DNA of 64,000 nucleotides from Chloroflexaceae bacterium. Its GTDB lineage: Bacteria > Chloroflexota > Chloroflexia > Chloroflexales > Chloroflexaceae. The stretch is from NCBI GenBank assembly GCA_012033195.1, contig JAAUSQ010000001.1, forward strand, positions 5,565 through 69,564, read 5' to 3'. The notes under the pieces were generated by a model. The model was given only the letters and a program-made list of their open reading frames with translations. It made no database searches and was not told the DNA's origin. This document shows, one piece after another, positions 1,890 through 26,400 of the stretch. Position 1 is the first letter of the stretch. Each line of letters opens with the position of its first letter. The translations under genes and the position numbers were made by a program.

Positions 1890-2088
1890 GCTTTGTCCTG
1901 GCCCGTCACCGGGAGGCGTTGTCGAAACACGCAACAGGATGTGGCCTGATCCTGGGAGGCATCCGCTGAACCTTCGATTTTCCGGGTGCTCGTCTGGCGA
2001 CCCGTTACCCCCACCATGCGGCGGGGAACCTCCACCTCGTCAACTTCGGCCCATCAGCAAATGGCTGGCGGACGAAGTCCATGCGCTT
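1890..2088 (-). ncRNA. glmS ribozyme (GlcN6P-activated self-cleaving riboswitch) in the glmS leader
   Basis: Minus strand reads AA/AGCGCAUGGACUUCGUCCGCC...CCGAAGUUGACGAGGUGGAGGUU...AAUCGAAGGUUCAGCGGAUGCCUCCCAGG. This matches the conserved glmS ribozyme blocks recalled from memory: the A/GCGCC cleavage site, UUGACGAGGAUGGAGGUU and UUCGGCGGAUGCCUCCCGGC. It is upstream of and co-oriented with glmS. Boundaries are approximate. Confidence 0.8.
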
Positions 2089-2257
2089 TATGTGTCCTGG
2101 TCGGTAGGTGTTTATCCCTCCTGGCAGTGCTCCCCCGCACTACCCGCTTGATTGAATGCGCTCTGTGAAGACTATAACACACCCATGCGCTGCCGTCCAA
2201 TCTTGGAAACGTGCTACCATGCCTGCATTGTTTATCTGTACATGGAGGTTGACGACA

Positions 2258-10400: not shown

Positions 10401-12204
10401 GGCCCGCTTCCGTGACGAGCGCAACAGCAAGATCAAGCAGGTGGCATCGGGGCGCTTCGGTGTCACTCCGGCCTACCTTGCCAATGCTGCCGAGCTTCAG
10501 ATCAAGATGGCGCAGGGCAGCAAGCCGGGTGAGGGCGGTCAGCTTCCGGGGCACAAGGTTAGCGCCGAGATTGCCCGCATTCGCCATACCACGCCGGGGG
10601 TATCGCTGATTAGCCCGCCGCCGCACCACGATATCTATAGCATCGAAGACCTGGCACAACTGATTTACGACTTGAAGCAGGTCAATGCCGGGGCGCTGGT
10701 GTCGGTCAAGCTGGTGGCGACGGCAGGCGTGGGCACGATTGCAGCGGGGGTAGCGAAGGGCTACGCCGACTTGATCCTGATCAGCGGGCACAACGGCGGC
10801 ACGGGTGCTTCCCCGCTCAGCAGCATCAAGAATGCCGGCGTATCGTGGGAACTGGGCCTTGCCGAAACCCAGCAGACCCTGATCATCAACGGGTTGCGTG
10901 GGCGGGTACGTTTGCGTGCCGACGGTGGCTTGCAGAACGGGCGCGACGTGCTGATCGCGGCGCTGCTTGGTGCCGATGAATATTCATTTGGCACTACCGC
11001 CCTGATTGCCGAAGGGTGTTTGATGGCGCGGGCCTGCCACAACAATACCTGTCCAGTGGGCATCGCCACCCAGCGCCTCGACCTGCGCGCCAAGTTTCCT
11101 GGTACACCCGAAATGGTCATGGCCTTCTTCCGCTATGTCGCGCACGAAATCCGCGAACTGCTGGCAAGCCTGGGCCTGCGCTCGCTGGAAGAGGCGGTCG
11201 GGCGCACCGACCTGCTGCGACAGCGCACCACGGGCGTTGCCGAGGCCGATGCGCTGCGGCTGCACAAGTTGCTGGCGCTGCCGGCCAACTTTGCACAGCA
11301 GGAAATCCGGCACGCGGGCGAGCGCAACCCGCTTCCGGTCGGTGAGACGTTGAACGACCGTCTGTTGCAGGATGCACAGCCTGCCCTGGAGGGGCGCGGC
11401 TCGGTTGAACTGAATTACACCATCCGCAACTGTGAGCGGACGGTTGGGGCGCGGCTGTCGGGTGTGATCGGGCAGATGTATGGCGACCATGGCCTACCAT
11501 CTGACACCATCCGCATCAACCTGCGGGGGAGTGCAGGCCAGAGCTTCGGCGCATTTAATGCACCGGGCGTTAGCTTCCATCTGATTGGTGAAGCCAACGA
11601 CTATGTTGGTAAGGGTATGGCAGGTGGCACGATTGCTATTCACCCGTCGCGTGAGGCCGCCTATGCATGGCACGAGAATGTCATTGCAGGTAACACCATT
11701 CTGTATGGGGCGACGGGTGGCGAACTCTACCTTGCTGGACGGGTTGGCGAGCGCTTTGCCGTCCGCAACAGCGGTGCTACTGTGGTGGTCGAAGGCGTGG
11801 GCGACCACGGCTGCGAGTATATGACGGGTGGCACAGCGGTCATTTTAGGATCGACGGGCTACAACTTTGGCGCAGGTATGACCGGCGGCGTGGCCTTTGT
11901 GCTCGATGTTGAAGAGCGGCTGCCCATCCGCTACAACCGTCAGCTAGTGCAGCTTGATCGGCTAAACCAGCAGGATCAGGAGCGACTGCGCGAACTGGTG
12001 CAGCGCCACGCCGACCTGACCGGAAGCCCGCGTGCTGCCGAGATCCTGGCAAACTGGGCCGCCTATGTCCCGCTGTTCTGGCGTGTGATGCCACGAGAAA
12101 TGGTGGCCCGCATCGAGGCGCAGAACGCAGGCACCCAGGAGGGCGGCACGGCGACCTATGACGATGCCACCCACCCCGCACCGAAGGCAGCGGCAGTAGT
12201 GTAA
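7472..12204 (+). pseudogene. gltB: glutamate synthase large subunit (GltB / Fd-GOGAT-like) interrupted by one single-base frameshift (likely assembly error)
   Basis: ORFs 7472..10093 and 9871..12204. Ntn-amidotransferase start ...YEHDACGIGFV. FMN domain motifs SKPGEGGQLPG and ISGHNGGTGASP. C-terminal GXGXG domain VVEGVGDHGCEYMTGG. The frames join at the CCCC run 9885-9888 (...INACFAGTP|SPVGGIGYRELAHK...). The span is 4733 nt, one base short. No gltD follows. Confidence 0.9.
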
Positions 12205-13698: not shown

Positions 13699-13727
13699 TT
13701 GACAACTGTACAGGGCCATGCTATAGT
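13699..13727 (+). promoter_or_regulatory. sigma70-type promoter for the HTH gene
   Basis: TTGACA (13699-13704), 17-nt spacer, TATAGT (13722-13727). The ATG follows 26 nt later. Confidence 0.6.
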
Positions 13728-13752
13728 GCCTATCAGAAAGGATAGGGAGTCT

Positions 13753-13962
13753 ATGCTACAGCGAGAACCTGTGCATCCAGGTGCCATCTATTCACGTGAA
13801 GAGGCCGCCGAAGTGCTCGGCATCAGCCTCAGTACATTAAAGCGATTGATTGTCGCAGGGCAGCTTGAAGTCAGCCGCCCCTCTAGTATTCGACGAATCT
13901 TTATCAAGGGTTCCAGCATCCTGAAAATGCTGGAAGAAACCAGATTGGAAGTTATGCGATGA
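13753..13962 (+). CDS. excisionase/MerR-type helix-turn-helix DNA-binding protein (69 aa)
   Basis: ORF 13699..13962 trimmed to ATG 13753, which has AGGGAG upstream. IYSREEAAEVLGISLSTLKRLIVAGQLEV is a typical excisionase-family HTH. Confidence 0.65.
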   Translation: MLQREPVHPGAIYSREEAAEVLGISLSTLKRLIVAGQLEVSRPSSIRRIFIKGSSILKMLEETRLEVMR

Positions 13963-14438: not shown

Positions 14439-14579
14439 GCTGCCAACAATATTGCACCATGCTCGACCGTTTCCCATACGGCCCGAGGAGTTCGGACAGT
14501 CCGTGCGATTCGGCTGTCGCGGAACTGACCAGCACCGAATCAGAACGGGGATACCAGTACGGTATCCCCCTTGTTGTAG

Positions 14580-15875
14580 CTACTCCTGCTCTGGCGCGGG
14601 CTGTGGTCGGTGGTGGTTGGCAAAGCCGAAGTTCTGCCCATTCTCGCGGTGGGTACCCGTAAAGCCGATGGGGGCCTTGCTCTCCATATGTTCGCGCAGT
14701 GCTTCAACCTGGGCCAGCATCACCTGCTCCATCGCGCTGGCCTTCCCCTGGTTGACCCAGGCCATCATTGAGGAGAGGAACAGTTCCTTCAGATAGGCAA
14801 ACGAAAAGCCGTGTGTCTGCTCTGCTACTGCTAGCAAACCCTGCTCAGGAAGCTGTAGCTCGCGCTGGAGCCGCCCATTCCACAGCGCAGTATAGGCGTG
14901 CCGCTCTGGGGTAGCAGGCAGGTCGAAGTGGTACTTGCGATCAAAACGGCTGGGTCGGTCGATAATTGCAACGTCGAGCCGCTCCGGGTGGTTGGTGGTT
15001 GCCAGCGTCACAACACCTTCGTTGCTGGCGAAGCCGTCCAGTTCATTCAGAAAGAACGAGCGGTTGTCATCGTTAATCAGCGCGTCCAAGTCTTCGAGCA
15101 CCAGCAAGCAGGGGGCCTGGTCGCGGGCACGCTGGAAGATGCGGTGAATGTTGTGATGATCGGTGCCGTACTCGGCCTTGAAACTCCGCACATACAGACA
15201 TGGCTGGTTGAGATGGTTGATCAGCGCCTTGACTGCGTGGGTCTTGCCGTTTCCTGGTGGGCCGATAAACAGAATGCCCCGCTTCCAGGGAATACCATAG
15301 TGATGGTAGGTGTCACGTGCCGCAAAAAAGCTCTCAAGGTCGGTGCGGATGTCGTGCTTGAGCGCCCCCTTAAGAATCAGGTTCTCGAAGGTAATACCCT
15401 TCAGTTCGCGGTACAACTCTTCGCTCTTACTCCAGTGCCCGTTTTCAAAGACGAGTACCTCGCCGCGCACTTCGGTGTGCCACTTGCAGACTGCCGTAAA
15501 AAAGTTGTCTGCAATCTGCTGGGTATCGGCAACAATCCAGTGATACTCGGTATTGCATCCCTCGTGGCTCCACGCGAGGCGCAACACCTTGAGCGTGTGG
15601 CCCTGCCATGTAATATTAATCCAGGCGGTATCCACCGCACGCTCAATGCGCTCGTAGGTGCTTTGCCATTCAGTGCGTACAATGCTATGTGCTTGCAGAT
15701 CGATATTGGCAGTGCAGTGCTGTGCTCCGGTATATCCCTCCAGGTAGAAGGCGTGGTCGGTGGTGGTCAGGATCGCCTTGCCTGCAAAGTGTTTGGTGAG
15801 TTGCTGTCCAACGTGATAGGCGATCAGGTTTACTGGCAGCGCCAGCGTCTCGCGGATAAATGCTGTATCTACCAT
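14580..15875 (-). CDS. AAA+ family ATPase (classic AAA clade) with an uncharacterised about 190-aa N-terminal domain
   Basis: Walker A GPPGNGKT, Walker B LLVLEDLD, second region of homology TTNHPERLDVAIIDRPSRFD. Co-oriented with and immediately downstream of the tRNA array. Confidence 0.85.
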   Translation of the reverse strand: MVDTAFIRETLALPVNLIAYHVGQQLTKHFAGKAILTTTDHAFYLEGYTGAQHCTANIDLQAHSIVRTEWQSTYERIERAVDTAWINITWQGHTLKVLRLAWSHEGCNTEYHWIVADTQQIADNFFTAVCKWHTEVRGEVLVFENGHWSKSEELYRELKGITFENLILKGALKHDIRTDLESFFAARDTYHHYGIPWKRGILFIGPPGNGKTHAVKALINHLNQPCLYVRSFKAEYGTDHHNIHRIFQRARDQAPCLLVLEDLDALINDDNRSFFLNELDGFASNEGVVTLATTNHPERLDVAIIDRPSRFDRKYHFDLPATPERHAYTALWNGRLQRELQLPEQGLLAVAEQTHGFSFAYLKELFLSSMMAWVNQGKASAMEQVMLAQVEALREHMESKAPIGFTGTHRENGQNFGFANHHRPQPAPEQE

Positions 15876-16113
15876 CTGGTTGTGTGTCCTTGCTAGGTGG
15901 TGGAAGGGGCCATGTTGCGGGCAAGCGGCAAGAGGTGGTCCCGCGCCCGCAACGGTAAGGTACCGCTTACCCGTAAAACGTTACTGCACAAACGATACTG
16001 ATGCACGCCCGCTGTGTATTCGCGCTATTGGGACTGGTTACTGGTGCAGGCATCGCATCACCTCCTCACGCTCTGATCGATTGTTTCTTCAGCTACTACT
16101 ATAACAGGAAAAC

Positions 16114-16207
16114 TGGTCAGGCCGGTCGGATTTGAACCGACACCTCCGACATGGCACGTCGGCAGGCTGCCCTTGACGCCACGACCGCTCGAACACCCTC
16201 GCGCCTG
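16114..16207 (-). tRNA. tRNA-Gly(GCC)-like, aberrant 5' half (possible pseudogene)
   Basis: The 3' part is canonical: anticodon arm CCGAC-GUGCCAU-GUCGG, T arm GUCGG-UUCAAAU-CCGAC, 3' acceptor CGGCCUG-A73-CCA. The best 5' acceptor strand (CAGGCGC) pairs only 5/7. About 38 nt occupy the place of a roughly 20-nt D region. Confidence 0.45.
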
Positions 16208-16211
16208 TCTA

Positions 16212-16286
16212 TGGTCCATCCGGCAGGTTTCGATCCTGCGACCCCCGGTGTTTCAGACCAGTGCTCTGCCGCTGAGCTACGGATGG
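16212..16286 (-). tRNA. tRNA-Phe(GAA), CCA encoded, variant T-loop
   Basis: Acceptor CCAUCCG/CGGAUGG, A73. Anticodon loop CUGAAAC. D arm GCUC-AGCGGCA-GAGC. T loop AUCGAAA (A54 instead of U54). Confidence 0.8.
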
Positions 16287-16287
16287 C

Positions 16288-16364
16288 TGGTACCCCCGGC
16301 ACGACTCGAACGTGCAACCCTCGCTGTGTAAGAGCGATGCTCTGACCAATTGAGCTACGTGGGC
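16288..16364 (-). tRNA. tRNA-Val(UAC), CCA encoded
   Basis: Acceptor GCCCACG/CGGGGGU (one A-G mismatch, one G-U), A73. Anticodon arm UCGCU-CUUACAC-AGCGA. T loop UUCGAGU. Confidence 0.8.
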
Positions 16365-16365
16365 A

Positions 16366-16442
16366 TGGTCGGACTGGCTGGACTTGAACCAGCAACCCCC
16401 TGTGTATCAGACAGATGCGCTGTCCTATTGCGCCACAGTCCG
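16366..16442 (-). tRNA. tRNA-Ile(GAU), CCA encoded
   Basis: Acceptor CGGACUG/CAGUCCG perfect (C1-G72), A73. Anticodon loop CUGAUAC. D arm GCGC-AAUAGGACA-GCGC. T loop UUCAAGU. Confidence 0.85.
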
Positions 16443-16446
16443 GCAA

Positions 16447-16523
16447 TGGTGCGCGGGAGGGGATTCGAACCCCTACTGTACGGTGTTTGAAACCGTTGCC
16501 TCTCCCAGTTGGGCTACCCTTGC
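16447..16523 (-). tRNA. class-I tRNA with Leu anticodon CAA (short 5-nt variable region), weak acceptor stem
   Basis: Anticodon arm ACGGU-UUCAAAC-ACCGU. T arm AGGGG-UUCGAAU-CCCCU. A73-CCA. Acceptor GCAAGGG/CCCGCGC has two mismatches. No long variable arm. Confidence 0.55.
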
Positions 16524-16526
16524 ACA

Positions 16527-16598
16527 TCGGTCCGGCGAGACTCGAACCCGCAACCCGTTGTATATAAGACAACCGCTCTGCCATTGAGCTACAGGCCA
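16527..16598 (-). tRNA. tRNA-Ile(UAU), the only array member without encoded CCA
   Basis: Anticodon arm GUUGU-CUUAUAU-ACAAC (perfect). D arm GCUC-AAUGGCA-GAGC. T loop UUCGAGU. Acceptor UGGCCUG/CGGACCG (one mismatch, two G-U), A73 followed by UGU. Confidence 0.65.
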
Positions 16599-16600
16599 TC

Positions 16601-16679
16601 TGGCTGGCCCGGCGGGACTCGAACCCGCACGTGGGTGACTTAGAAGGCACCTGCTCTCCTTCCATTGAGCTACGAGCCA
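16601..16679 (-). tRNA. tRNA-Arg(UCU)-like with one extra base in the anticodon stem
   Basis: Acceptor UGGCUCG/CGGGCCA, G73-CCA. D arm GCUC-AAUGGAAGGA-GAGC. Anticodon region GGUGC-CUUCUAA-G(U)CACC has a bulged U. T loop UUCGAGU. Confidence 0.6.
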
Positions 16680-16691
16680 TATTCTGGTGTG

Positions 16692-16767
16692 TGGTGCTCC
16701 CGGCGGGACTCGAACCCGCACCACACGGTGTTTAAGACCGTTGCCTCTGCCATTGGGCTACCGGAGC
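16692..16767 (-). tRNA. class-I tRNA with Leu anticodon UAA (short 5-nt variable region)
   Basis: Anticodon arm ACGGU-CUUAAAC-ACCGU (perfect). T arm GCGGG-UUCGAGU-CCCGC. A73-CCA. Acceptor GCUCCGG/CGGGAGC (one G-G mismatch). 3-bp D stem. Confidence 0.65.
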
Positions 16768-16771
16768 ACAG

Positions 16772-16858
16772 TGGTGTGTCAGGTCGGATTCGAACCGACT
16801 CAGCCAAACGGCGACGATATTACAGACCGCTGAGGCTCTCCCGCGCCCGTGCTGACAC
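16772..16858 (-). tRNA. tRNA-Tyr(GUA), class II, CCA encoded
   Basis: Acceptor GUGUCAG/CUGACAC perfect, A73. Anticodon loop CUGUAAU. 14-nt variable arm CGCCGUUUGGCUGA. T loop UUCGAAU. The D region is somewhat irregular. Confidence 0.75.
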
Positions 16859-16899
16859 ATACAATATCAATGATTCTTATTTGAACACATCTTTGCCAA

Positions 16900-16977
16900 T
16901 GGTGCCCCCGGCAGGACTCGAACCTGCACTGCACGGTGTCTGAGGCCGCTACCTCTGCCGGATTGGGTTACAGGGGC
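16900..16977 (-). tRNA. class-I tRNA with Leu anticodon CAG (short 5-nt variable region)
   Basis: Acceptor GCCCCUG/CGGGGGC, A73-CCA. Anticodon arm GCGGC-CUCAGAC-ACCGU (31-39 C-A mismatch). T arm GCAGG-UUCGAGU-CCUGC. The D arm is paralogous to those of 16447 and 16692. Confidence 0.65.
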
Positions 16978-16979
16978 AC

Positions 16980-17055
16980 TGGAACAGGAGCCTGGATTCG
17001 AACCAGGATCAGCGATATTCAGCGCATCGTGTCCTCCCATTGAGCCGACTCCTGT
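16980..17055 (-). tRNA. tRNA-like gene, anticodon probably CUG (Gln) but with a non-canonical loop (G33) and U73
   Basis: Perfect acceptor ACAGGAG/CUCCUGU and perfect T arm CCUGG-UUCGAAU-CCAGG plus CCA. Anticodon arm CGAUG-CGCUGAA-UAUCG has G at position 33. The D stem has one mismatch. Confidence 0.45.
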
Positions 17056-17056
17056 G

Positions 17057-17131
17057 TGGCTGGGGGCGAAGGACTCGAACCCTCATCAGCCGGGTCAAAG
17101 CCGGGTATCCTGCCGTTAGACGACCCCCCCA
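17057..17131 (-). tRNA. tRNA-Gln(UUG), one extra G in the 5' acceptor run
   Basis: U1-A72 and G73 as in bacterial tRNA-Gln. 3' acceptor GCCCCCA-G-CCA. The 5' strand is U followed by G7 (C7 run 17124-17130), one base too many. Anticodon loop CUUUGAC. T loop UUCGAGU. Confidence 0.7.
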
Positions 17132-17138
17132 GTATGTG

Positions 17139-17213
17139 TGGTCCCCCTGGAAGGATTTGAACCTCCAACCCTGCGGGTAAGAGCCGCCTGCGCTGCCGTT
17201 GCGCCACAGAGGG
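17139..17213 (-). tRNA. tRNA-Lys(CUU), CCA encoded
   Basis: Acceptor CCCUCUG/CAGGGGG, A73. Anticodon loop CUCUUAC. D arm GCGC-AACGGCA-GCGC. T loop UUCAAAU. Confidence 0.8.
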
Positions 17214-17216
17214 AAC

Positions 17217-17291
17217 TGGTACCGCCAGAGGGACTCGAACCCCCACCTCATCGCTTAAAAGGCGCGTGCTCTTGCCTTGAGCTACAGCGGT
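17217..17291 (-). tRNA. tRNA-Lys(UUU), weak anticodon stem
   Basis: Acceptor ACCGCUG/UGGCGGU, A73-CCA. Anticodon loop CUUUUAA on a stem with only 3 Watson-Crick pairs (CGCGC/GCGAU). D arm GCUC-AAGGCAA-GAGC. T loop UUCGAGU. Confidence 0.65.
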
Positions 17292-17292
17292 G

Positions 17293-17367
17293 TGGAGCCT
17301 CGCGCAGGAATTGAACCCGCAACCATCGCCTTACAAGAGCGTTGCTCTACCATTGAGCTAGCGAGGC
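17293..17367 (-). tRNA. tRNA-Thr(UGU), CCA encoded
   Basis: Acceptor GCCUCGC/GCGAGGC perfect, U73. Anticodon loop CUUGUAA. D arm GCUC-AAUGGUA-GAGC. T loop UUCAAUU. Confidence 0.8.
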
Positions 17368-17371
17368 ATTG

Positions 17372-17446
17372 TGGTAACGGAGGGTGGACTTGAACCACCG
17401 GCCTCCAGGATATGAACCTGTTGCGCTGCCGCTGCGCCACTCCGTC
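17372..17446 (-). tRNA. tRNA-Met(CAU), elongator type (or Ile2/lysidine substrate)
   Basis: Acceptor GACGGAG/CUCCGUU, A73-CCA. Anticodon loop UUCAUAU. Lacks the initiator GGG/CCC anticodon-stem signature and the C1-A72 mismatch. T loop UUCAAGU. Confidence 0.75.
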
Positions 17447-17455
17447 ACAGAAGGT

Positions 17456-17483
17456 GTGGCCCGCTGGAGGCGGTGCGGGCCAC
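17456..17483 (-). other. GC-rich 9-bp hairpin inside the longest intra-array spacer
   Basis: GTGGCCCGC / GCGGGCCAC perfect inverted repeat with a 10-nt loop. It lies in the 48-nt gap between tRNA-Glu and tRNA-Met. There is no U-tract. Confidence 0.5.
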
Positions 17484-17494
17484 GCGAAAGATTG

Positions 17495-17569
17495 TGGCAA
17501 CCCCGGCGGGAATTGAACCCGCGCTGCTCGCTTGAAAGACGAGCGTCCTGACCATTAGACGACGGGGCC
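17495..17569 (-). tRNA. tRNA-Glu(UUC), CCA encoded
   Basis: Acceptor GGCCCCG/CGGGGUU, G73. Anticodon loop CUUUCAA. D arm GUCU-AAUGGUCA-GGAC (Glu-like). T loop UUCAAUU. Confidence 0.8.
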
Positions 17570-17571
17570 AC

Positions 17572-17645
17572 TGGTGGATCGGCGGGGAGTTGCACCCCGA
17601 TCTCTGCGGTGCAAGCGCAGTATCCTCCGATTAGACGACCAACCC
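17572..17645 (-). tRNA. tRNA-Ala(UGC) with G3:U70, variant T-loop UGCAACU
   Basis: Acceptor GGGUUGG/CCGAUCC contains the G3:U70 alanine identity pair, A73-CCA. Anticodon arm CUGCG-CUUGCAC-CGCAG. T arm CGGGG-UGCAACU-CCCCG (G at position 55). Confidence 0.8.
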
Positions 17646-17649
17646 ACAT

Positions 17650-17724
17650 TGGCGCTCCAGAAGGGTTCCGACCCCTCTACTCCTGTTCGACAGACAGGGA
17701 TGATAGCCACTTCACCACTGGAGC
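17650..17724 (-). tRNA. tRNA-Asp(GUC), variant T-loop GUCGGAA
   Basis: Acceptor GCUCCAG/CUGGAGC perfect, G73-CCA. Anticodon arm CCUGU-CUGUCGA-ACAGG. T loop GUCGGAA (G54, G58). Confidence 0.75.
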
Positions 17725-17728
17725 ATAC

Positions 17729-17805
17729 TGGCCTCGCCAGAAGGACTCGAACCTTCAGCCTCCACCTTCGCACGGTGGCACCCTTTCCGCTTGGGCGATG
17801 GCGAG
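17729..17805 (-). tRNA. tRNA-Arg(GCG), CCA encoded
   Basis: Acceptor CUCGCCA/UGGCGAG perfect, G73. Anticodon arm CCACC-GUGCGAA-GGUGG (perfect stem; G34 rather than the usual A34/I34). T loop UUCGAGU. Confidence 0.75.
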
Positions 17806-17808
17806 GAA

Positions 17809-17881
17809 TGGCTGCCGCACCCTCGAACCGGGCACCGCTGCCTTCGGATGGCAGCGCCCTTTCCTGCTGGGCGCTACGGCA
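17809..17881 (-). tRNA. tRNA-Arg(CCG) with a truncated T arm
   Basis: Acceptor UGCCGUA/UGCGGCA, G73-CCA. Anticodon arm CUGCC-AUCCGAA-GGCAG. D arm GCCC-AGCAGGAAA-GGGC. Only 18 nt lie between the anticodon stem and the acceptor, giving a 3-bp CCC/GGG stem around GGUUCGA. Confidence 0.55.
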
Positions 17882-17885
17882 ACAT

Positions 17886-17959
17886 TGGCAGCGAGGAAGG
17901 GACTCGAACCCCTACCACGTGAGTAACAATCACGCGCCCTACCGTTAGACGACCTCGCT
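17886..17959 (-). tRNA. tRNA-Asn(GUU), CCA encoded
   Basis: Acceptor AGCGAGG/CCUCGCU perfect, G73. Anticodon arm CGUGA-UUGUUAC-UCACG. T loop UUCGAGU. Confidence 0.8.
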
Positions 17960-17963
17960 CCAC

Positions 17964-18040
17964 TGGCAGATGGGAGTGGACTCGAACCACTACGACGCAG
18001 TGTTGGAGACTGCTGCTCTGCCCCATTGAGCTACCCATCT
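17964..18040 (-). tRNA. tRNA-Trp(CCA), CCA encoded
   Basis: Acceptor AGAUGGG/CCCAUCU perfect, G73. Anticodon arm GCAGU-CUCCAAC-ACUGC. D arm GCUC-AAUGGGGCA-GAGC. T loop UUCGAGU. Confidence 0.9.
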
Positions 18041-18043
18041 GTA

Positions 18044-18121
18044 TGGTCGAGGCGACTGGATTCGAACCAGTGATCACTGCGCTCCAAACGCAGGATGTTG
18101 ACCAAGCTACACCACACCTCG
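18044..18121 (-). tRNA. tRNA-Pro(UGG), CCA encoded
   Basis: C1-G72 and A73 as in bacterial tRNA-Pro. Acceptor CGAGGUG/CGCCUCG. Anticodon arm CUGCG-UUUGGAG-CGCAG. T loop UUCGAAU. Confidence 0.85.
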
Positions 18122-18125
18122 GCAA

Positions 18126-18213
18126 TGGCGGGAGAAGCAGGAGTTGCACCTGCAAGGCATAAGCTCGCCCGTTTTCAAAGCGGGTGCCGTCGCCTGCCCT
18201 CGGCTAGACCTTT
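18126..18213 (-). tRNA. tRNA-Ser(UGA)-like, class II, with unpaired 5' acceptor strand and variant T-loop (possible pseudogene)
   Basis: Ser-like D arm UA-GCC-GAGGGCAGGCGAC-GGC. Anticodon loop UUUGAAA. 14-nt variable arm. T arm GCAGG-UGCAACU-CCUGC. 3' strand UUCUCCC-G73-CCA. The 5' strand reads AAAGGUC instead of the expected GGGAGAA. Confidence 0.45.
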
Positions 18214-18220
18214 CATCTTG

Positions 18221-18311
18221 TGGCGGAGGATGGGCGGATCGAACACCCGCGCCAGTCTGCCCGGCGGCCTTCTCTTAGCAGGAGAGCACATTGCCCCTCT
18301 GTCAATCCTCC
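18221..18311 (-). tRNA. tRNA-Ser(GCU), class II, CCA encoded
   Basis: Acceptor GGAGGAU/AUCCUCC perfect, G73. Anticodon loop CUGCUAA. 21-nt variable arm. 3-bp D stem. T loop UUCGAUC. Confidence 0.8.
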
Positions 18312-18315
18312 GCAA

Positions 18316-18390
18316 TGGACACCCCGACTGGATTTGCACCAGCGTCTGGCGGGTTGCAACCGCCTGCCTGTTCTGCTCGGCAACGGGGTG
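18316..18390 (-). tRNA. tRNA-Cys(GCA), variant T-loop UGCAAAU
   Basis: Acceptor CACCCCG/CGGGGUG perfect, U73 (the Cys discriminator), CCA. Anticodon arm GGCGG-UUGCAAC-CCGCC. T arm GCUGG-UGCAAAU-CCAGU (G at position 55). Confidence 0.75.
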
Positions 18391-18424
18391 CCAGAAATGG
18401 CGATGCAGTTGTTAAGGTTCCGGG

Positions 18425-18501
18425 TGGGGTGACGGACGAGATTCGAACTCGTGTCCTCTGTGTTCACAGCACAGCGCTCTCGCCACTGAGCTAACGCCAC
18501 C
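18425..18501 (-). tRNA. tRNA-His(GUG) with encoded G-1 and C73, CCA encoded
   Basis: G-1 plus GUGGCGU / CCGUCAC-C73-CCA (one U-C mismatch at 7-66). Anticodon arm CUGUG-CUGUGAA-CACAG. D arm GCUC-AGUGGCGA-GAGC. T loop UUCGAAU. Confidence 0.85.
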
Positions 18502-18583
18502 ATCTCCGTTGAACATTGGGCGACCGTTATGGCGGTCGTTAGCTGGTGTCGAGTGTTGTCCAGCTCGTATTTGGTATGAATAG

Positions 18584-18612
18584 AGTGTAGCATAGCTCTT
18601 TATAGTTGTCAA
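18584..18612 (-). promoter_or_regulatory. sigma70-type promoter of the tRNA array
   Basis: Minus strand has TTGACA (18612-18607), a 17-nt spacer and TACACT (18589-18584). It lies about 75-80 nt upstream of the tRNA-His 5' end. The leader contains the hairpin CGACCG-N6-CGGTCG (18521-18538). Confidence 0.65.
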
Positions 18613-18696
18613 CGGTTCAATATGGGCCTTAAGATGTATTCTCTCTACGTTAAAGGTCTGAGAAGTGCAAGCTGGGGCGCGGGGCACGGGGCACGG

Positions 18697-18724
18697 GAAG
18701 CGCAAAGCGCCCGCGCAGGCGGGC
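18697..18724. repeat. GAAGCGCAAAGCGC element fused to a GCCCGC-GCAG-GCGGGC hairpin
   Basis: Exact 14-mer GAAGCGCAAAGCGC (18697-18710), preceded by GGGGCACGGGGCACGG and overlapping the 6-bp hairpin 18709-18724. Located between the ruvB stop and the tRNA-array promoter. Confidence 0.6.
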
Positions 18725-20138: not shown

Positions 20139-23100
20139 CTACCGCCGCTCAAGCACAAAGTCTCTGCGCGGCAGGGTGTTGAATTCAAAGGGTATAAGAC
20201 CACTATAGCTGATAGTGTCCTGCGGTTCCTGGTACGAGGACGAACTGTGGTCAATCCGATACCAGATGGTGCCGTCGGGTAGCTCACCAGGGTAGATCGG
20301 CATATAGACACCATACTCGCCGGTGGTCAGGTCAATCTGGTCGCCAGTACGATAACTCGATTGTGGCTTGTACATGTTCACATCAACCCGGAATGTCGGC
20401 GGTGTACCCGTGTCGGCGCGTGTGACCGTTCCGGTAAAGCCCAGCGTGGTTGGTCGCACCAAGATATCACGCGCGAACTCGTAATCATCATTGATGTAGC
20501 GTAATTGCGCCGGGTCAACCACGTCGGTGGTGACATAGTAGACCGTCTCTTGGTTATCCAGCGCCGTGATGTAGGTCACGGCATATGGTGCGGTGTCGGT
20601 GCGCTCACGTTCGAACTCACAGAAGCGCACGAACGTGCGGAGGGTGGTTGAACAGAGCCGCGTGCCAGTCGTATCAAAGACATCGATAAACTCGGCGGTA
20701 ATGGCATTGGTATTGGCATCGGGGTTGTAGATGTTGCGAACCGTGCCGGTGATCTTCTCGCCGCGCCGTGAGAAGACCAGATCACGCTCAAACTCGTTGA
20801 TGGTACCGGGAACGATGCCGTCAATCTGGGCGGTCACGTTTTCGCTCACATAGACATCAGTGCGGTTGGCAATCTGGAAGGTAAGCTCAACATTTTCACC
20901 CACCCCGTCATTCAGGATGACATACATATCACGATACTCGCCCTGCCGGTTGACATCATCCTGGGAACCGGTGCCATAGCGCACACGATCAACCACATCG
21001 TTAGCATCAAGCCAGGTTGGGATAGTGACATCGCCAGTATCGAAGTTGCCCCGGTTCGGGTCGGCGTAGGTAACCCGCCCCGACAGCTTAAGCATGGTTG
21101 GGGCTACTTCGAAGTCGCGGTAGAAGTACCGATTACCATTACCATCGTCAATCGCCGTCGGGTCAACCGTCTCGGTATAGGTAGCCTCGTCCGATTGGCC
21201 CGCATTGATGATATAGGTAGCCACAAACGGATCGAGCGAGGTAACCGTCAATGGACAGTAGTAGGTATCGGTAGCGTCTTCGTTGGTACAGCTTCCATAC
21301 GGCCAACGAATATCGACGCGGGTTGTTGGCGCAAAGTCGGCCAGCAGCGTATTGTTGATATTCCCTTCGAAGTAGATATCAATCGGATTGACCCGGATAT
21401 CAAAGGTGAGCGCATTGAGCGTGTTGGCTTGCAGGTTCTCAAATGGCACGTCGAGGTAGACTGATTCCGAGTTGTTGCCATCATTCACAGACGCATAAAT
21501 ATCATTCAGCACGCCCGATGTCTTGCCATCTTCCAGCACAAAGAGCAGGCTGTAGATACTTGTAGCATCAACATCGTTGTTATTGCTAATTTCTAAGATG
21601 CCATCCCCGTACCCCCAATAGCTTACATAACCAGTCACACCGTTATCCGGGTCAATCGGGTTGTTGTTCTGGTCGGTGAGCCTTCCGGTCAGGCGCACCA
21701 ACGTTGGCAGCGGTATGTCCAGTTCGCCCAGGTCAATGGTGAAGGTTGTGCCGTTCAGCGTCGCCGTCGATGGGTCGATGGTTACATTGGTGACGGCACT
21801 GCTCCAGTAGGTTGAAATCTCGATCTCGGCACTGTACGATGGCTGCTGGTTGAACGGTAGTGTATCGGCGGGGTAGATGCTGCAATCGAAGGTGCCATCG
21901 TACGAACTGGTGCTACAAGTCAGGTTCGGGTCGAGCACGCGAATGTCTATATCAATACCGCTATAATCGAGAATTTTCTGCTGTTCTTCTGCCGTGAGGC
22001 CCGTGCCATCTGGGAAGGCGACCGTGCCGACATAGCGAGCATCGTAGTTGATGACCGGCTGTGCCGTAAAGGTAAAGTTGCGGGTTGCCGTGGTGAGCGT
22101 GCCCACAACCACATTGACATTCCGGGTGAATGTCTGCTCGGCGTTGTTATAGCTGATTTCAAAGGTCAGGTTTGCCGGTGACTGGTTGAGCACGGTAAAG
22201 GTGGCATTATACGCGCCCGTTGCATCGGTACTGGTTCCGCCGATGTAGGTGCCGTTCTGAAAGATAGCTATCGAGGCTGATGCCAGCGGTGTGGCTGCGC
22301 CATCAGAAACGGTGCCCTGCAACTGGAGCCGCGTATGGGTGATGGCGAAAGCTTCGTCAAAGCGGTTCAGTTGCCCCGGTGTGACATTGAGCGTCCGCTC
22401 GAAGTTGGTGACGATGTTGCCAACAGATACCTCGTAGCGAATGCCAATGACTGTGTCGCTGGTGTTGCGGGCGATTGTTGTATCATAGCGGCCCGTAGCA
22501 TCGGGGTAGATCCATGCAATATTAGTTGTACCCTGATACACCCGTATATAGCTTCCGGCAATCGGGTTGCCCGCCGTGTCTTGGAGGGTGCCCACGAATT
22601 GCAGGCGGGTCAGGTTGATACTGAAATCCTGCTCGTACGTTGTCAGGGTTCCCGGCGTGACCGTCGTTGATCGATTGAAGGTGTAGGATGTGCCACCAGA
22701 GGAGATCACATATTCGAGCGCCGCCGTGTTCACGTGGCCCACCGGAATATCGCCACTGTAATTGCCCTGTGCATCCGTACTAAAGTTGTAGAAGAGGTTG
22801 TTATAGCGTACTCGCACCGATGCATTATTGACAGGTGCGCTGCTCAGGTCGGTAATGGTGCCGCGCACCCGCACCTGCGTAAGTGATGGTGGCTCAACAA
22901 TGGTATTAACCGTGGCAGGCTGCCCCGATGTCAGGTTGGTAAAGGTTGCGTAGCCGTAGTTCAACTGCCCATCATAGAAGCTATCCAGGCGGAAGCGGCC
23001 CGTGAGCGCACCGGAGAACGCATTGCCATTGAGATCGACCACGAACGAGAATTGTCCCTGCGCATTGGTCGTGACACTGCTGCCCGGCGGAGTGATGCGC

Positions 23101-23465
23101 TGGAAGAAGAAGCTCGATGGTACCTCGCCCGATAGCGAAACGCTGGTACTGGCAACCGGTGTGCCATCGGCCCGCCGCGCCACACCCGCAATGGTCAGGC
23201 GGGTGGTCGGTCGGAGTTGCAAGGTCTGGTTGTCCAGCGTGAGCAGGCTGCCCGGCTCCACATTGGTAAAGGTTGGTTCCAGGGTCACGTTTTGCCCCGA
23301 TATGAATGTACTGATACGGAACTTGCCACTCAGGGTGCCGTTCGGGAACGCACTGGGTAGCAGGTAGAGCCGATAGCTAAAGCGGCCCTGTGCGTCGGTT
23401 CGGGTGTAGCGATTGTTGAACGGCTCCACTGTGTTGAAGAACGTGCTGAACGGTTCGAGGCCCAC
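20139..23465 (-). CDS. giant secreted repeat protein, segment 5 of 5 (C-terminal CarboxypepD_reg/Cna-B-like repeats)
   Basis: 1108-aa ORF made of roughly 100-aa repeats of the type L.L.G.V.D..G.P.A.A.V...........TDA.G.Y. Its frame is open upstream to about 23505 and joins segment 4 there (...GTVLDG|AGTPVANNQVELVGLEPF...). Confidence 0.8.
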   Translation of the reverse strand: MGLEPFSTFFNTVEPFNNRYTRTDAQGRFSYRLYLLPSAFPNGTLSGKFRISTFISGQNVTLEPTFTNVEPGSLLTLDNQTLQLRPTTRLTIAGVARRADGTPVASTSVSLSGEVPSSFFFQRITPPGSSVTTNAQGQFSFVVDLNGNAFSGALTGRFRLDSFYDGQLNYGYATFTNLTSGQPATVNTIVEPPSLTQVRVRGTITDLSSAPVNNASVRVRYNNLFYNFSTDAQGNYSGDIPVGHVNTAALEYVISSGGTSYTFNRSTTVTPGTLTTYEQDFSINLTRLQFVGTLQDTAGNPIAGSYIRVYQGTTNIAWIYPDATGRYDTTIARNTSDTVIGIRYEVSVGNIVTNFERTLNVTPGQLNRFDEAFAITHTRLQLQGTVSDGAATPLASASIAIFQNGTYIGGTSTDATGAYNATFTVLNQSPANLTFEISYNNAEQTFTRNVNVVVGTLTTATRNFTFTAQPVINYDARYVGTVAFPDGTGLTAEEQQKILDYSGIDIDIRVLDPNLTCSTSSYDGTFDCSIYPADTLPFNQQPSYSAEIEISTYWSSAVTNVTIDPSTATLNGTTFTIDLGELDIPLPTLVRLTGRLTDQNNNPIDPDNGVTGYVSYWGYGDGILEISNNNDVDATSIYSLLFVLEDGKTSGVLNDIYASVNDGNNSESVYLDVPFENLQANTLNALTFDIRVNPIDIYFEGNINNTLLADFAPTTRVDIRWPYGSCTNEDATDTYYCPLTVTSLDPFVATYIINAGQSDEATYTETVDPTAIDDGNGNRYFYRDFEVAPTMLKLSGRVTYADPNRGNFDTGDVTIPTWLDANDVVDRVRYGTGSQDDVNRQGEYRDMYVILNDGVGENVELTFQIANRTDVYVSENVTAQIDGIVPGTINEFERDLVFSRRGEKITGTVRNIYNPDANTNAITAEFIDVFDTTGTRLCSTTLRTFVRFCEFERERTDTAPYAVTYITALDNQETVYYVTTDVVDPAQLRYINDDYEFARDILVRPTTLGFTGTVTRADTGTPPTFRVDVNMYKPQSSYRTGDQIDLTTGEYGVYMPIYPGELPDGTIWYRIDHSSSSYQEPQDTISYSGLIPFEFNTLPRRDFVLERR

Positions 23466-26400
23466 GAGTTCGACCTGATTGTTGGCGACCGGGGTACCGG
23501 CCCATCCAGGACGGTGCCCGATACCAGCACACTGGTGAGATCTGGCTCAATGCTGATGGTGCGCTTGACTTCGCCCGACCCGCTGCCGGGGTCAATCGTG
23601 ATGGTACGGGTATCGGTGCCCCATTCGCCGTTGACCGTTACGGTGACATCAAACGGTGCATCAAGCGGCAGCATGCGGTCACAGATCAGCGTTTCAAAGC
23701 CCTGGCGACCGCTCGACGTCCAGATCTGGCACAGGTTGCCCAGTTGCGGCGATGTGACGGTGGCGTAGTTGCCAAACAGCGGCTTGCTGGTGTTCGGGTC
23801 GGTGATATTGGTAATCAGCACCAGGCTGCGTTCGCTCAGGGCGAAGTCGTTGGTTACCTCGTGATACTGGTAATCGGCCAGCGTCGGCAGATCGCGGCTA
23901 AAGCGTTCGGTCGCATTGTTGGCCATAATTTCAAACACAATCAATGGATCGGTCTGGTTGGAACGCAGAATGACATCCATCTCATACGCACCGGTGGCAT
24001 CGGTCGTCGCCACGCCGGGAGTATTGTCAGCATCGATAAAGAGATGTGGCCCCGTCGCACGCACCGTTGCATTCGGCACCGGGTTGCCTTCGTCATCGCG
24101 CACCACGCCACTCAGCCGCAGGGTGGTTGCGCGGGCGGTCAGGTTCAGGGTCACATTGGCCGATTGACCAACCGGCGGCAAGCCGTTGGGCGGCGGTGCA
24201 CTGTCATCGATGCGGTAGGTGAGGACGGTCTCCCCCCAATCGTCGGAGATGGTGCCGATCACATCGAACGGGTTGCTGATGATCGTCACCTGGTTGCACG
24301 AGTAGCGGTTGGTCTGAGTATCGGTGTCGTACCAGATGGTGCCGCTACACCACCCTTCCAGACCAGGTGCAGAAAGCTCGTAGCGCATCCCCTGCAAGTT
24401 CATCGTCGGCCCAAACTCGTTCACGATAGCACCGGAGATCCAGAGCTGCCGCTCTTCCAGCACCACCGATTGCTCATACTCGTTCAGGTTATCTGGCCCA
24501 CCCGGAGCCAGTGGGTCAATTGTAAACTCACGATAGAAGCTCGGTGCAGAGATGCCCGATTGCACTTGCAGCCGCAGGTCGGCGCTGCTGGCATCGGTTG
24601 GCAGCATCACCAGCATCTCGTACGTGCCGCTCGCATCGGTTGTGGCATAGCCGGTCGCATCGCCACTCAGTTGCACGGTCGCATTCGCAAACGGTGTGCT
24701 ATCCGGGGCGGTCACTGTGCCGTACAGCCGCAAGATAGTTGTACGGATGGTCAGGTCATCGGTAAAGGTAGCCTGCTCGCCATCACCTGGCATCTCGGCG
24801 CTGCCGATCTCACGCTCGAACACACGGCTGCCCCACTCGCCCCGCACGGTAATGGAGTACGGGAAGGTGTCGCGGGTGGTATCAACCGGCGGACAGGTGT
24901 AGGTGGAGGGCGAATTGTTCGAACGGTAGGAATAGGTACAGAACAGACCGATTCCTGGCGCACGCAGTTCGACGCGGGTGCCCTGCCGCCAGAACGTGAG
25001 CGCATTGCTCAGTTCGTGGGTCACGCTGCCGTTCATATTCAGGCGGCGCAAGGCAAAGACAATATCTTCCTGCCGCTCGTTAAGCTGGTCAGTCTGCAAC
25101 GGCACGGTGAGATTAACTTCTTGCTGGGTGCTATTGCCCAGACTGACCGAGCCGTAGCTGAAGCGCAGGCTGAGGTTGGCGCTGGTTGTGTCGGGCGCAA
25201 AGACCAGCCACGCCTCGTAATTGCCCGCTGCATTGCTGGTGACGCGGGCGTAGCCGTCGCCGCTCACCTCGATGATTGCACCATTCAGCGCTGTGCCGTT
25301 CTGGTTGGTAATCTTGCCATACAGCCGTAACGTGTTGGCCTGCACCACGGTATTGTTGCTGACCGTGCCCGCTGCGCCCGCATCCGGCATGGCCGCCCCG
25401 CTGACGGTGTAGCTTTCTTCGGTGCTGCCCCACACGCCCGCCACAGCAACCGTGTAGGCAAATGTGTCACCCGTCACATCGATGGCGGGGCAGGTATACT
25501 CGCCGTTGGTGTTGGTCCAGGTCGCACACCACTCGCCAATGCCGTCGGCCCGTACAATCACGCGCTGACTCGGAATGCCCACGTTTGTATTGTAGGCATT
25601 GACCACGCGGCCCTGAATAGTCAGGCGGCGCACCGTGAAGGCGATATCGACCGTGCGCTGGTTGAACTGGGTCGGCTGAATAGGCATACTGATCGGCTGC
25701 ACCACGGTGAGGCCGTTGTTCTCTACGCGCACCGTAAAGGTAGCTGTGGTGGTGCCCGTCGAGAAGAGCACCGTGCTGCCATAGGTGCCATCGCTGGCGG
25801 TCGTGGTCTGCGCGTTGGCGGCCCCACTGAGGCGTACGGTTGCGCCTGATAGCGGGTCTGCACCATTGGTGACAGTGCCAAGCACGCGCAGCGCCGGGAA
25901 GATCACCTGCTCTTCATACTCTGTCAGGTCGCCCGGCGTGAGCGGTACCACGATTTGATCGGTCAGCGAGTTGGACGGATGGCTCACGCGCAGGGCCAGC
26001 GTTGCGGTGTCGGCATCCGCGCCGAAGAGCAGATAGGTTGAGAAGTCGCCGCCTGCATCGCTGGTCAGTTCGGCACTGGCATCGCCGCCAATAGTGACCC
26101 ACCGATTAGCCAGCGGTGTGCCGTCGGTGCCCGTCAGCCCCACATCAAGCTTCAGGGTGGTTGGTGCCACAAAGAGCGTCAGCGGATAATCGATGCTGGT
26201 ACCCGCTGGCGGTACATAATTAACATAGCCATCAATCTCGAAGGTGCCCCAATCGCCGCTCATCCGGTAGATAATCGGGAAGGGGTCGTCCCAGGTGATA
26301 CGTGCCTTACAGGTGTAGGTGGCATCGTTGCGGGTTGTAGTGGTGCAGAGTGTCCCCACGTCCGGATTGATGACTTCCACCTGTAGCCTGCTCATCGGCA

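Follow-up and report, generated by a model that had tools for sequence, protein, structure and literature searches.

A compact array of 28 tRNA-like genes downstream of ruvB in a Chloroflexaceae bacterium, probably a horizontally acquired accessory array

What is a run of 28 tightly packed tRNA-like genes, nominally covering all 20 amino acids, doing immediately downstream of ruvB in the chromosome of a Chloroflexaceae bacterium, and does it belong to the ordinary tRNA complement of its host or has it come from elsewhere? The question is raised by a stretch of 64,000 nucleotides, here called the window, that comprises positions 5,565 to 69,564 of contig JAAUSQ010000001.1 (assembly GCA_012033195.1); all coordinates given below are those of the window. 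Genome sequence was read for this 64-kb window and, in a second assembly (GCA_012031155.1), for 12 kb. The answer that we favor, with a probability of roughly three in four, is that the array is a horizontally acquired long accessory array (an L-array or tRNA array unit), transcribed as one precursor and furnishing a supplementary pool of tRNAs.

Genes for tRNAs were predicted with ARAGORN at the default and at a relaxed threshold and with the Rfam model RF00005, the gathering score of which is 29 bits. Positions 16114-18501 of the minus strand consist of 28 head-to-tail tRNA-like genes in 2388 nt, corresponding to 11.7 genes per kb, or to 10.5 per kb if the 25 default ARAGORN calls alone are counted. 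These 25 all reside on the minus strand (16114-18500), and default ARAGORN found no tRNA outside the array in the 64-kb window. Relaxed ARAGORN adds Tyr GUA (16772-16858), Arg CCG (~17809-17883) and a tRNA-like gene at 18126-18218, such that all 28 slots claimed in a first-pass annotation of this DNA are tRNA-like. The covariance-model search that had been proposed there as a check supports most of the cloverleaves, with 22 of the 28 members at or above the gathering score of RF00005. Gln CUG (28.9 bits) and Gly GCC (26.9 bits) remain below it, the match of the gene termed 'Ser UGA' is partial (17.9 bits) and does not include the acceptor stem, and Ser GCU, Tyr GUA and Arg CCG have no match to this covariance model. 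Ser GCU and Tyr GUA are clean class II cloverleafs in ARAGORN despite the latter result. Beyond the 22 members that pass, three thus have clean or near-threshold cloverleafs and three (Gly GCC, 'Ser UGA' and Arg CCG) are degenerate.

The anticodons are as read in the first-pass annotation, 28 in number and none of them repeated, and the same agreement was found for the encoded CCA ends (27 of 28 members, the exception being Ile UAU) and for all those identity elements that were checked, i.e., G3:U70 in Ala, G-1 (18501)/C73 in His, U73 in Cys, G73 in Trp, U1-A72/G73 in Gln UUG and C1-G72/A73 in Pro. Five members, Ala, 'Ser UGA', Cys, Phe and Asp, have non-canonical T-loops. Direct-repeat families within the array reflect general tRNA resemblance only. 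An Rfam scan detected no rRNA gene in the 64-kb window. The individual members are the following, in order of transcription and with RF00005 scores in bits.

18425..18501, minus strand: tRNA-His GUG; encoded G-1 at 18501 opposite C73, CCA encoded; 58.7 bits
18316..18390, minus strand: tRNA-Cys GCA; U73, T-loop GUGCAAAU (G55); 45.2 bits
18221..18311, minus strand: tRNA-Ser GCU; class II, 91 nt, clean cloverleaf, no Rfam match
18126..18218, minus strand: Ser-UGA-like, degenerate; acceptor stem with 4/7 pairs, T-loop GUGCAACU; 17.9 bits for a partial match (model positions 8-63)
18044..18121, minus strand: tRNA-Pro UGG; C1-G72, A73; 55.6 bits
17964..18040, minus strand: tRNA-Trp CCA; G73; 58.7 bits
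17886..17959, minus strand: tRNA-Asn GUU; 59.7 bits
17809..17883, minus strand: Arg-CCG-like, degenerate; poor acceptor and T arms; relaxed ARAGORN, no Rfam match
17729..17805, minus strand: tRNA-Arg GCG; G34, not the usual bacterial A34/inosine; 53.0 bits
17650..17724, minus strand: tRNA-Asp GUC; T-loop GGUCGGAA; 45.7 bits
17572..17645, minus strand: tRNA-Ala UGC; G3:U70, T-loop GUGCAACU (G55); 53.9 bits
17495..17569, minus strand: tRNA-Glu UUC; 62.1 bits
17372..17446, minus strand: tRNA-Met CAU, elongator type; G1.U72, C11:G24, anticodon stem with just two G-C pairs at its foot; 61.1 bits
17293..17367, minus strand: tRNA-Thr UGU; 64.5 bits; 82% identity to Thr UGU of the Anabaena trn operon
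17217..17291, minus strand: tRNA-Lys UUU; 52.5 bits; 85% identity to Lys UUU of the Nonomuraea plasmid array
17139..17213, minus strand: tRNA-Lys CUU; 56.4 bits
17057..17131, minus strand: tRNA-Gln UUG; U1-A72, G73; 40.6 bits
16980..17055, minus strand: tRNA-Gln CUG, atypical; A1-U72, U73; borderline, 28.9 bits
16900..16977, minus strand: tRNA-Leu CAG, class I; 78 nt, no long variable arm, A73; 45.5 bits
16772..16858, minus strand: tRNA-Tyr GUA, class II; 87 nt, A73, clean cloverleaf; relaxed ARAGORN only, no Rfam match
16692..16767, minus strand: tRNA-Leu UAA, class I; 76 nt, A73; 56.6 bits
16601..16679, minus strand: tRNA-Arg UCU; bulged U in the anticodon stem or 8-nt loop (UCUA); 46.6 bits
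16527..16598, minus strand: tRNA-Ile UAU; sole member without encoded CCA; 54.9 bits
16447..16523, minus strand: tRNA-Leu CAA, class I; 77 nt, A73; 47.4 bits
16366..16442, minus strand: tRNA-Ile GAU; 65.0 bits
16288..16364, minus strand: tRNA-Val UAC; 63.3 bits
16212..16286, minus strand: tRNA-Phe GAA; T-loop GAUCGAAA (A54); 61.7 bits
16114..16188, minus strand: Gly-GCC, degenerate, sole Gly member; top two acceptor pairs mismatched; 26.9 bits against a threshold of 29

With 22-28 genes at 10.5-11.7 per kb, the array lies well within what Tran et al. (2016; PMC4758250) define as a tRNA array unit, 20 or more tRNA genes with a density of no less than 2 per kb. As in L-arrays, which have a single orientation, can be co-transcribed, exceed accretive arrays in length and are non-periodic, all genes are located on the minus strand, are separated by spacers of -1 to 48 nt and follow one strong upstream promoter without a predicted internal terminator, and the 28 genes do not repeat any anticodon. 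The rRNA link and the duplicated canonical tRNAs of Firmicutes-type operons are both missing. The surroundings are not those of prophage or integrative and conjugative element (ICE) tRNA clusters, which sit among phage or mobile-element genes; the ORFs (open reading frames) flanking the array are ordinary chromosomal ones.

With regard to decoding capacity, the anticodons were compared with codon usage derived from 22 long ORFs of the window. There is no initiator-type Met gene, the single Met CAU being of the elongator type, and no reader is provided for GGA/GGG (29% of the Gly codons of the window), for CUU/CUC/CUA (37% of the Leu codons) or for CGA (7% of the Arg codons). Several codon boxes are served by a U34 reader alone though C-ending codons dominate, e.g., ACC with 52% of the Thr codons, while readers are carried for the rare codons AGA/AGG, UUA and AUA, which account for 5% of the Arg, 2% of the Leu and 9% of the Ile codons, respectively. 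Because the initiator is lacking and Gly, Leu and Arg codons stay unread, the array cannot represent the whole tRNA complement, and initiator and other tRNA genes must lie elsewhere in the genome. On these grounds, logic alone excludes that the array is simply the entire housekeeping complement, the possibility that the first-pass annotation had named as fatal to its own proposal. Its description of a near-minimal decoding set has to be abandoned as well, since the array by itself leaves codons unread and cannot decode the genome. Coverage of all 20 amino acids holds by anticodon and is nominal otherwise, because the sole Gly gene fails to reach the threshold score, carries mismatches in its acceptor stem and shows indels when two strains are compared; in addition, 'Ser UGA' and Arg CCG are poor.

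The usual bacterial isoleucine tRNA for AUA is a CAU type modified to lysidine by TilS, and the usual bacterial arginine tRNA is an ACG type in which TadA generates inosine. The array has Ile UAU in place of the former and Arg GCG in place of the latter. We infer that the set can work without TilS or TadA recognizing foreign tRNAs; such independence from the host enzymes would suit a portable decoder set.

A mark of foreignness is found in the leucine tRNAs. All three Leu genes of the array are class I (76-78 nt, A73) and have no long variable arm, unlike the Leu CAA, UAA and CAG genes found at ruvB loci of Chloroflexota, which are class II, measure 83-87 nt and share 45-63% identity with the array copies. 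According to a 2023 review, tRNA-Leu has a long arm everywhere except in animal mitochondria. Leucyl-tRNA synthetase of Escherichia coli requires A73 and tertiary contacts of the D-loop with the T-loop and does not require the variable arm (PMC9976931), which makes charging of the class I Leu members plausible, as all three possess A73. A pattern built from the three genes was used to scan viral and metagenome contigs. It matched only three viral contigs, each with a short Leu CAA in a phage cluster of 7, 17 or 33 tRNAs, and at least 120 metagenome contigs. A few of the latter contain arrays with several class I Leu genes (L096, with 25 tRNAs beside RecT and DnaB, as well as L105, L099, L093 and L111); most carry stand-alone Leu genes on cellular contigs with conserved neighbors. 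Class I tRNA-Leu was consequently rejected as a marker specific to arrays, given that it stands alone beside housekeeping genes in many cellular metagenome contigs.

The short tRNA-Leu family (74-78 nt, A73) is conserved in its own right and common to phage clusters, plasmid arrays and stand-alone genes. A stand-alone tRNA-Leu CAA gene is present in more than 100 metagenome contigs next to genes for pyruvate kinase, an ANTAR response regulator and a periplasmic binding protein; our guess is that the owner clade belongs to the Actinomycetota.

When BLASTN was run against phages and plasmids, as the first-pass annotation had recommended, members of the array proved similar to tRNAs from known arrays of plasmids and phages. 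On the plasmid side, the best matches are arrays themselves, namely those on a Nonomuraea plasmid (35 tRNAs) and on Mycobacterium avium pS2b (25) and the trn operon of Anabaena pCC7120delta (24 found), and class-I-length Leu genes occur in all three. Most phage matches stem from Mycobacterium and Streptomyces phages. Glu CUC in the trn operon of Anabaena carries the T-loop GUGCAACU as well, and Lys CUU in M. avium pS2b the T-loop GAUCGAAA; replacement of GTPsiC by GUGC is known from staphylococcal cell-wall tRNA-Gly. The order Leu UAA-Arg UCU-Ile UAU (16527-16767), comprising readers of rare A-ending codons, is likewise present in pS2b (~4810-5160 of the locus). The Leu UAA gene of the window is 82-83% identical to the Arg UCU gene of M. 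avium, a likeness across isotypes that suggests anticodon switching within arrays. Similarity to known arrays does not go beyond individual tRNAs, often of differing isotype, without any collinear block. The search for an orthologous array ended negatively, with BLASTN on phages and plasmids yielding single-tRNA matches only and the arrays from the pattern scan having nothing but the class I Leu family in common with that of the window. Such common traits (class I Leu genes, unusual T-loops and the succession Leu UAA-Arg UCU-Ile UAU) argue for a common, widely exchanged pool of array tRNAs.

The array is preceded by its own promoter, as had been claimed, and the following elements outside the tRNA genes bear on its transcription.

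18584..18612, minus strand: sigma-70-type promoter TTGACA-17-TACACT with an extended -10 TG; 10/12 matches
18502..18583, minus strand: leader of ~76-82 nt with two hairpins, AGCUGG/CCAGCU and CGACCG/CGGUCG; minimum free energy -17.4 kcal/mol, z = -2.5
17447..17494, minus strand: 48-nt Glu-Met spacer with a 9-bp GC hairpin (GUGGCCCGC...GCGGGCCAC); -19.9 kcal/mol, z = -3.7
16859..16899, minus strand: 41-nt spacer before Tyr; AT-rich, unstructured, weak promoter-like site TTGGCA-18-AATCAT

The promoter is positioned ~80 nt upstream of the first tRNA gene. Sites of equal quality number nine on both strands of the whole window, and one of these, 66 nt upstream of an S-adenosylmethionine (SAM) riboswitch, serves as a positive control; its position supports the view that good promoter-like sites are real promoters in this organism. 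With ARAGORN boundaries, spacers of -1 to 7 nt are found at 22 of the 27 junctions, and the longer ones measure 12, 34, 41 and 48 nt, in addition to 23 nt before Gly. The earlier count of 23 short spacers applies if Gly GCC is taken in the 94-nt version of the first-pass annotation, with its upstream end at ~16207, and drops to 22 otherwise. The hairpin in the Glu-Met spacer is a possible processing or pause site. Neither promoter nor terminator was predicted in the 238-nt gap between the last tRNA and the gene for an AAA ATPase, while a terminator-like hairpin (14569..14547) follows that gene, so that read-through from the array into the AAA ATPase gene is possible.

In Anabaena, the tRNA array is controlled by TrcR. 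The 18-nt TrcR motif was not found at the array promoter of the window, and a match to the TrcR box 8-mer at this site (ATGCTACA, 7/8) is no more than chance would give (the window has 29 matches of this kind, with 21 expected); a TrcR-type operator was rejected for these reasons. Three tandem heptamers, CCCGTGC CCCGTGC CCCGCGC (18677-18697, minus strand), are located ~65-85 nt upstream of the -35 box of the array. They come after a GC hairpin (GCCCGC...GCGGGC) that is located behind ruvB and has the look of its terminator.

The host belongs to a Chloroflexaceae lineage of metagenome-assembled genomes (MAGs), its RuvB sharing 83% identity with the protein from a Chloroflexus MAG and 79% with its counterpart in a Roseiflexus MAG. 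The array is chromosomal and immediately downstream of ruvB. That ruvB flanks it on one side and the AAA ATPase gene on the other had been stated correctly before; further genes nearby encode a DUF3095 protein, a small HTH_17 protein, glutamate synthase (gltB) and large surface proteins. An exact look-up of the RuvB and DUF3095 proteins of the window gave no match, while that of the AAA ATPase led to a contig of a conspecific MAG, GCA_012031155.1, which holds part of the array. None of 20 related Chloroflexota has an array at the ruvB locus, to which this comparison applies. Insertion-site mapping by synteny was dropped, as none of 80 ruvB loci matches the flanks of the window. In a 2021 survey, Chloroflexi are among the phyla with only short, accretive arrays, and their tRNA genes are mostly stand-alone (PMC8421152). 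Literature searches did not yield a report of a long tRNA array in Chloroflexota.

Over 12 kb, the contig of GCA_012031155.1 has 99.5% identity with the window; it breaks off within the array, at 16594. Differences between the two strains amount to 17 in 481 nt of array vs. 39 in 11,533 nt of flanks (17 of 56 in total, ~10x, Fisher p = 3e-11). Two transitions in Ile UAU break stem pairs in the strain studied here, and both pairs are restored in the other strain. Gly GCC differs by substitutions and indels, and Ile GAU and Phe are identical. The divergence of the array could mean relaxed constraint, with the signal being unreliable: it was downgraded as proof of relaxed selection, the p value notwithstanding, because the contig ends within the array, the MAG has frameshifts in gltB and dense differences recur in patches at 9847-9930 and 11334-11362.

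Taken in sequence, the proposed pathway would start at the sigma-70-type promoter (18612-18584), which is predicted to drive one polycistronic precursor through the 28 genes, possibly running on into the AAA ATPase gene. RNase P would cut each 5' end, as is established for tRNA maturation, and exonucleases would trim the 3' trailers of 1-7 nt, since encoded CCA disfavors RNase Z. Host synthetases would charge the products, with ~24-25 chargeable tRNAs predicted, and these would add to the scattered housekeeping tRNAs and not replace them, while three members, Gly GCC, 'Ser UGA' and Arg CCG, appear to be decaying. The array would have arrived by horizontal transfer, out of the pool of arrays borne by plasmids and phages, the known carriers of which include actinobacteria and cyanobacteria. 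By analogy, its role is most likely that of a conditionally useful reserve pool at times when translation or the resident tRNAs are compromised. The Anabaena array is silent until translation is inhibited, whereupon 23 of 26 tRNAs were detected and aminoacylated (PMC8421152).

The view taken in the first-pass annotation that the array is of the plasmid, phage or ICE type rather than a housekeeping operon is borne out by the absence of rRNA genes and duplicates, the array's own promoter, the class I Leu genes, the likeness of its members to those of known arrays and the lack of a counterpart beside ruvB in the 20 relatives. A number of points nevertheless weigh against a horizontally acquired accessory array. 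Neither BLASTN against phages and plasmids nor the pattern scan of viral and metagenome contigs produced an array with common gene order and sequence. Genes for an integrase, a transposase or an HNH endonuclease are missing from its flanks, as are phage genes. Among the 80 ruvB loci, none has the flanking genes of the window, and neither side of ruvB is syntenic with the nearest relatives, such that the insertion point cannot be defined. Absence of an array beside ruvB in these relatives does not prove its absence from their genomes. The promoter is near consensus and has no evident repressor site, and the TrcR box match is at chance level, such that conditional expression is an analogy only. 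Finally, accessory status is deduced from sequence that covers the 64-kb window and the 12 kb from the other assembly.

Could the array instead be a housekeeping tRNA operon of the Firmicutes type that supplies most tRNAs, with scattered genes filling the gaps? The chromosomal context with ruvB and gltB nearby, the strong near-consensus promoter, the 22 members that pass the Rfam threshold and the encoded CCA, found also in two tRNA-Ala genes of the nearest relative (L001), would all be expected of such an operon. It is very improbable all the same: an rRNA operon is not adjacent, genes are not duplicated, the initiator is missing, about a third of the Gly and Leu codons remain unread, lone U34 readers stand where C-ending codons dominate (ACC, 52% of Thr), the Leu genes are class I and thus unlike those of Chloroflexota housekeeping tRNAs, five T-loops are non-canonical, three members are degenerate, and relatives have no such array beside ruvB in a phylum whose tRNA genes are reported to be mostly stand-alone. 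The same degenerate members, among them the sole Gly gene, together with an Ile UAU that lacks CCA and has two pair-breaking transitions relative to the other strain and with the ~10x higher divergence of the array relative to its flanks (p = 3e-11), would fit a silent, decaying relic of a past phage or plasmid transfer that makes no present contribution. We regard this as distinctly unlikely, as 22 members pass the covariance model with identity elements and CCA intact, the promoter is intact, Ile GAU and Phe are unchanged between the strains, and the divergence signal is unreliable in view of the MAG contig end, the gltB frameshifts and similar patches elsewhere; moreover, known arrays function despite pseudogenes, of which that of Anabaena has 3 among 26 genes.

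Two further proposals accept an accessory set and differ with respect to its purpose. Products of the array may form a reserve for defense or counter-defense, replacing tRNAs cut by anticodon nucleases (toxin-antitoxin systems, colicins, abortive infection) or serving a mobile element in this way. Twenty isotypes by anticodon, sequences unlike the host type and member families in common with phage clusters would suit this purpose, and mycobacterial array units are discussed as putative anti-defense systems in one report (PMC12803027). There is, however, neither an adjoining nuclease or defense gene, PADLOC matches to IetA spanning the generic AAA domain only, nor a phage context, and the anticodon loops of classic targets are canonical, e.g., CUUUUAA in Lys UUU; a reserve of this kind is possible, if unlikely. 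The other proposal, which we consider improbable, sees a portable, self-sufficient decoder module in active use, with members made to function in any host without the essential wobble-modifying enzymes TilS and TadA, selected odd variants and the AAA ATPase joined with the array in one stress operon; as part of it, the class I form of the Leu genes and, in Ala, Cys and 'Ser UGA', the T-loops with G55 (GUGCAAC/AU), reminiscent of those in staphylococcal cell-wall tRNA-Gly, would be selected and give these tRNAs a role other than ordinary elongation.

Among known systems, a long accessory array as favored here is close to the trn operon on plasmid delta of Anabaena (Nostoc) sp. PCC 7120 (Santamaria-Gomez et al. 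2021, PMC8421152; for TrcR, PMC10272220). Both are tandem runs of ~26-28 tRNA genes that share a strand, are separated by very short spacers and follow a single upstream promoter; rRNA genes are absent from both, isotype coverage is broad, a few pseudogenes are included, and both contain class-I-length Leu genes and a T-loop GUGCAACU, present in one member of the Anabaena operon, the Thr UGU genes being 82% identical. The Anabaena operon, in contrast, is plasmid-borne, while the array described here is chromosomal and has no adjacent HNH endonuclease. A significant TrcR box is lacking in the window and TrcR is reported to be restricted to cyanobacteria, gene order differs without collinear sequence similarity, and the host phylum of the array described here is reported to be without L-arrays. 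The tRNA array units known from plasmids and phages of Mycobacterium and further actinobacteria are similar to it in density and size (Morgado and Vicente 2018, PMC5966550; for the giant linear plasmids of M. avium, PMC12803027). In M. avium pS2b, the anticodon succession Leu UAA-Arg UCU-Ile UAU recurs, as do neighboring pairs of Lys and of Gln genes; its Leu UAA is of class I as well, and one tRNA has the T-loop GAUCGAAA. Differences from the actinobacterial arrays are the restriction of similarity to single tRNAs, often across isotypes, the presence there of Arg ACG and here of Arg GCG, and the absence of a plasmid or phage backbone at the array of the window. The ICE arrays of Acidithiobacillus fall under the same operational definition and, according to the source (PMC4758250), horizontal transfer followed by rearrangement is deduced for them as it is here; integrative-element genes do not flank the array of the window.

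Phage clusters, represented by a 152-kb viral contig (L088) with 33 tRNAs and a transfer-messenger RNA, resemble the array in their compact tandem tRNAs, a class I Leu CAA and an Arg GCG. They differ in that phage genes are missing at the array of the window and that the remaining members are not orthologs. Firmicutes operons (Bacillus trn) have in common with it long tandem tRNA runs from one promoter. Firmicutes trn operons are rRNA-linked, contain duplicates and canonical tRNAs and are vertically inherited. The array of the window, on the other hand, has neither rRNA link nor duplicates and includes non-canonical tRNAs, and vertical inheritance is unsupported, as there is no array beside ruvB in the 20 relatives. 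Apparently, a long tRNA array is noted here for the first time in Chloroflexota, whereas the kind of system is already known. The known host range of long accessory tRNA arrays would thus extend to this phylum, and a chromosomal example without mobile-element backbone would be added that has traits in common with cyanobacterial, actinobacterial and phage arrays. It offers a natural test case for a stress reserve vs. a codon supplement vs. a counter-defense store. The general picture of what such arrays are is unchanged.

The gene downstream of the array was studied with regard to a functional connection.

14580..15875, minus strand: YjoB/Bcs1-like AAA ATPase, on the array strand and 238 nt downstream of the last tRNA

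By sequence (PDB 7w42, E = 8e-60) and by fold, the protein resembles YjoB from Bacillus subtilis and mitochondrial Bcs1. It is identical to a protein from a 'Chloroflexaceae bacterium' MAG. The nearest homologs outside its own MAG lineage exhibit 55-59% identity and stem mostly from Nostocales, which suggests horizontal acquisition. The homologs occur in varied contexts, none of them beside arrays. The gene may be co-transcribed with the array, and an AAA ATPase, all0263, belongs to the TrcR regulon of Anabaena and is co-regulated with the tRNA array there. A functional link was nonetheless rejected, as homologs are not near arrays, the protein is YjoB/Bcs1-like with nothing related to tRNA, and orthology with all0263 is not established. 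The AAA ATPase is treated here as a neighbor and not as a proven part of the system.

A 28-codon ORF (MPAPVTSPNSANTQRACISIVCAVTFYG; 15967-16053, minus strand) preceded by a strong GAGGAGG Shine-Dalgarno sequence is located between the array and the AAA ATPase gene. It has one non-synonymous difference from the other strain, at 16046. With respect to TrcR, two perfect TGTAGTAT boxes of the TrcR type, 21 nt apart, were noticed on a contig of Nostoc punctiforme FACHB-252 (14536-14564 of L084) directly upstream of a gene for RNA 2'-phosphotransferase (PTS_2-RNA, KptA), which may be an unreported member of the TrcR regulon.

The small, excisionase-like HTH_17 protein is encoded at 13699-13962 (plus strand), between the DUF3095 and AAA ATPase genes, and has a near-consensus promoter, TTGACA-17-TATAGT with TG, at 13699. 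Nothing else near the array hints at the remnant of a mobile element. Upstream of ruvB, two very large ORFs of 1108 and 1728 amino acids with repeated CarboxypepD_reg domains (20139-28516, minus strand) probably encode cell-surface proteins. The gltB gene (7472-12204, plus strand) is split into the overlapping ORFs 7472-10093 and 9871-12204, implying a frameshift. In the conspecific MAG, gltB has further frameshifts near 10815 and 11202 as well as the dense difference patches at 9847-9930 and 11334-11362 mentioned above; the split gene may reflect a pseudogene, recombination or an assembly error. Two regulatory RNAs are also encoded in the window, a glmS ribozyme at 1873-2098 (minus strand, 51.7 bits) and the SAM-I riboswitch at 43566-43677 (plus strand, 81.2 bits) with its promoter TTGACA-17-TATCAT at 43500.

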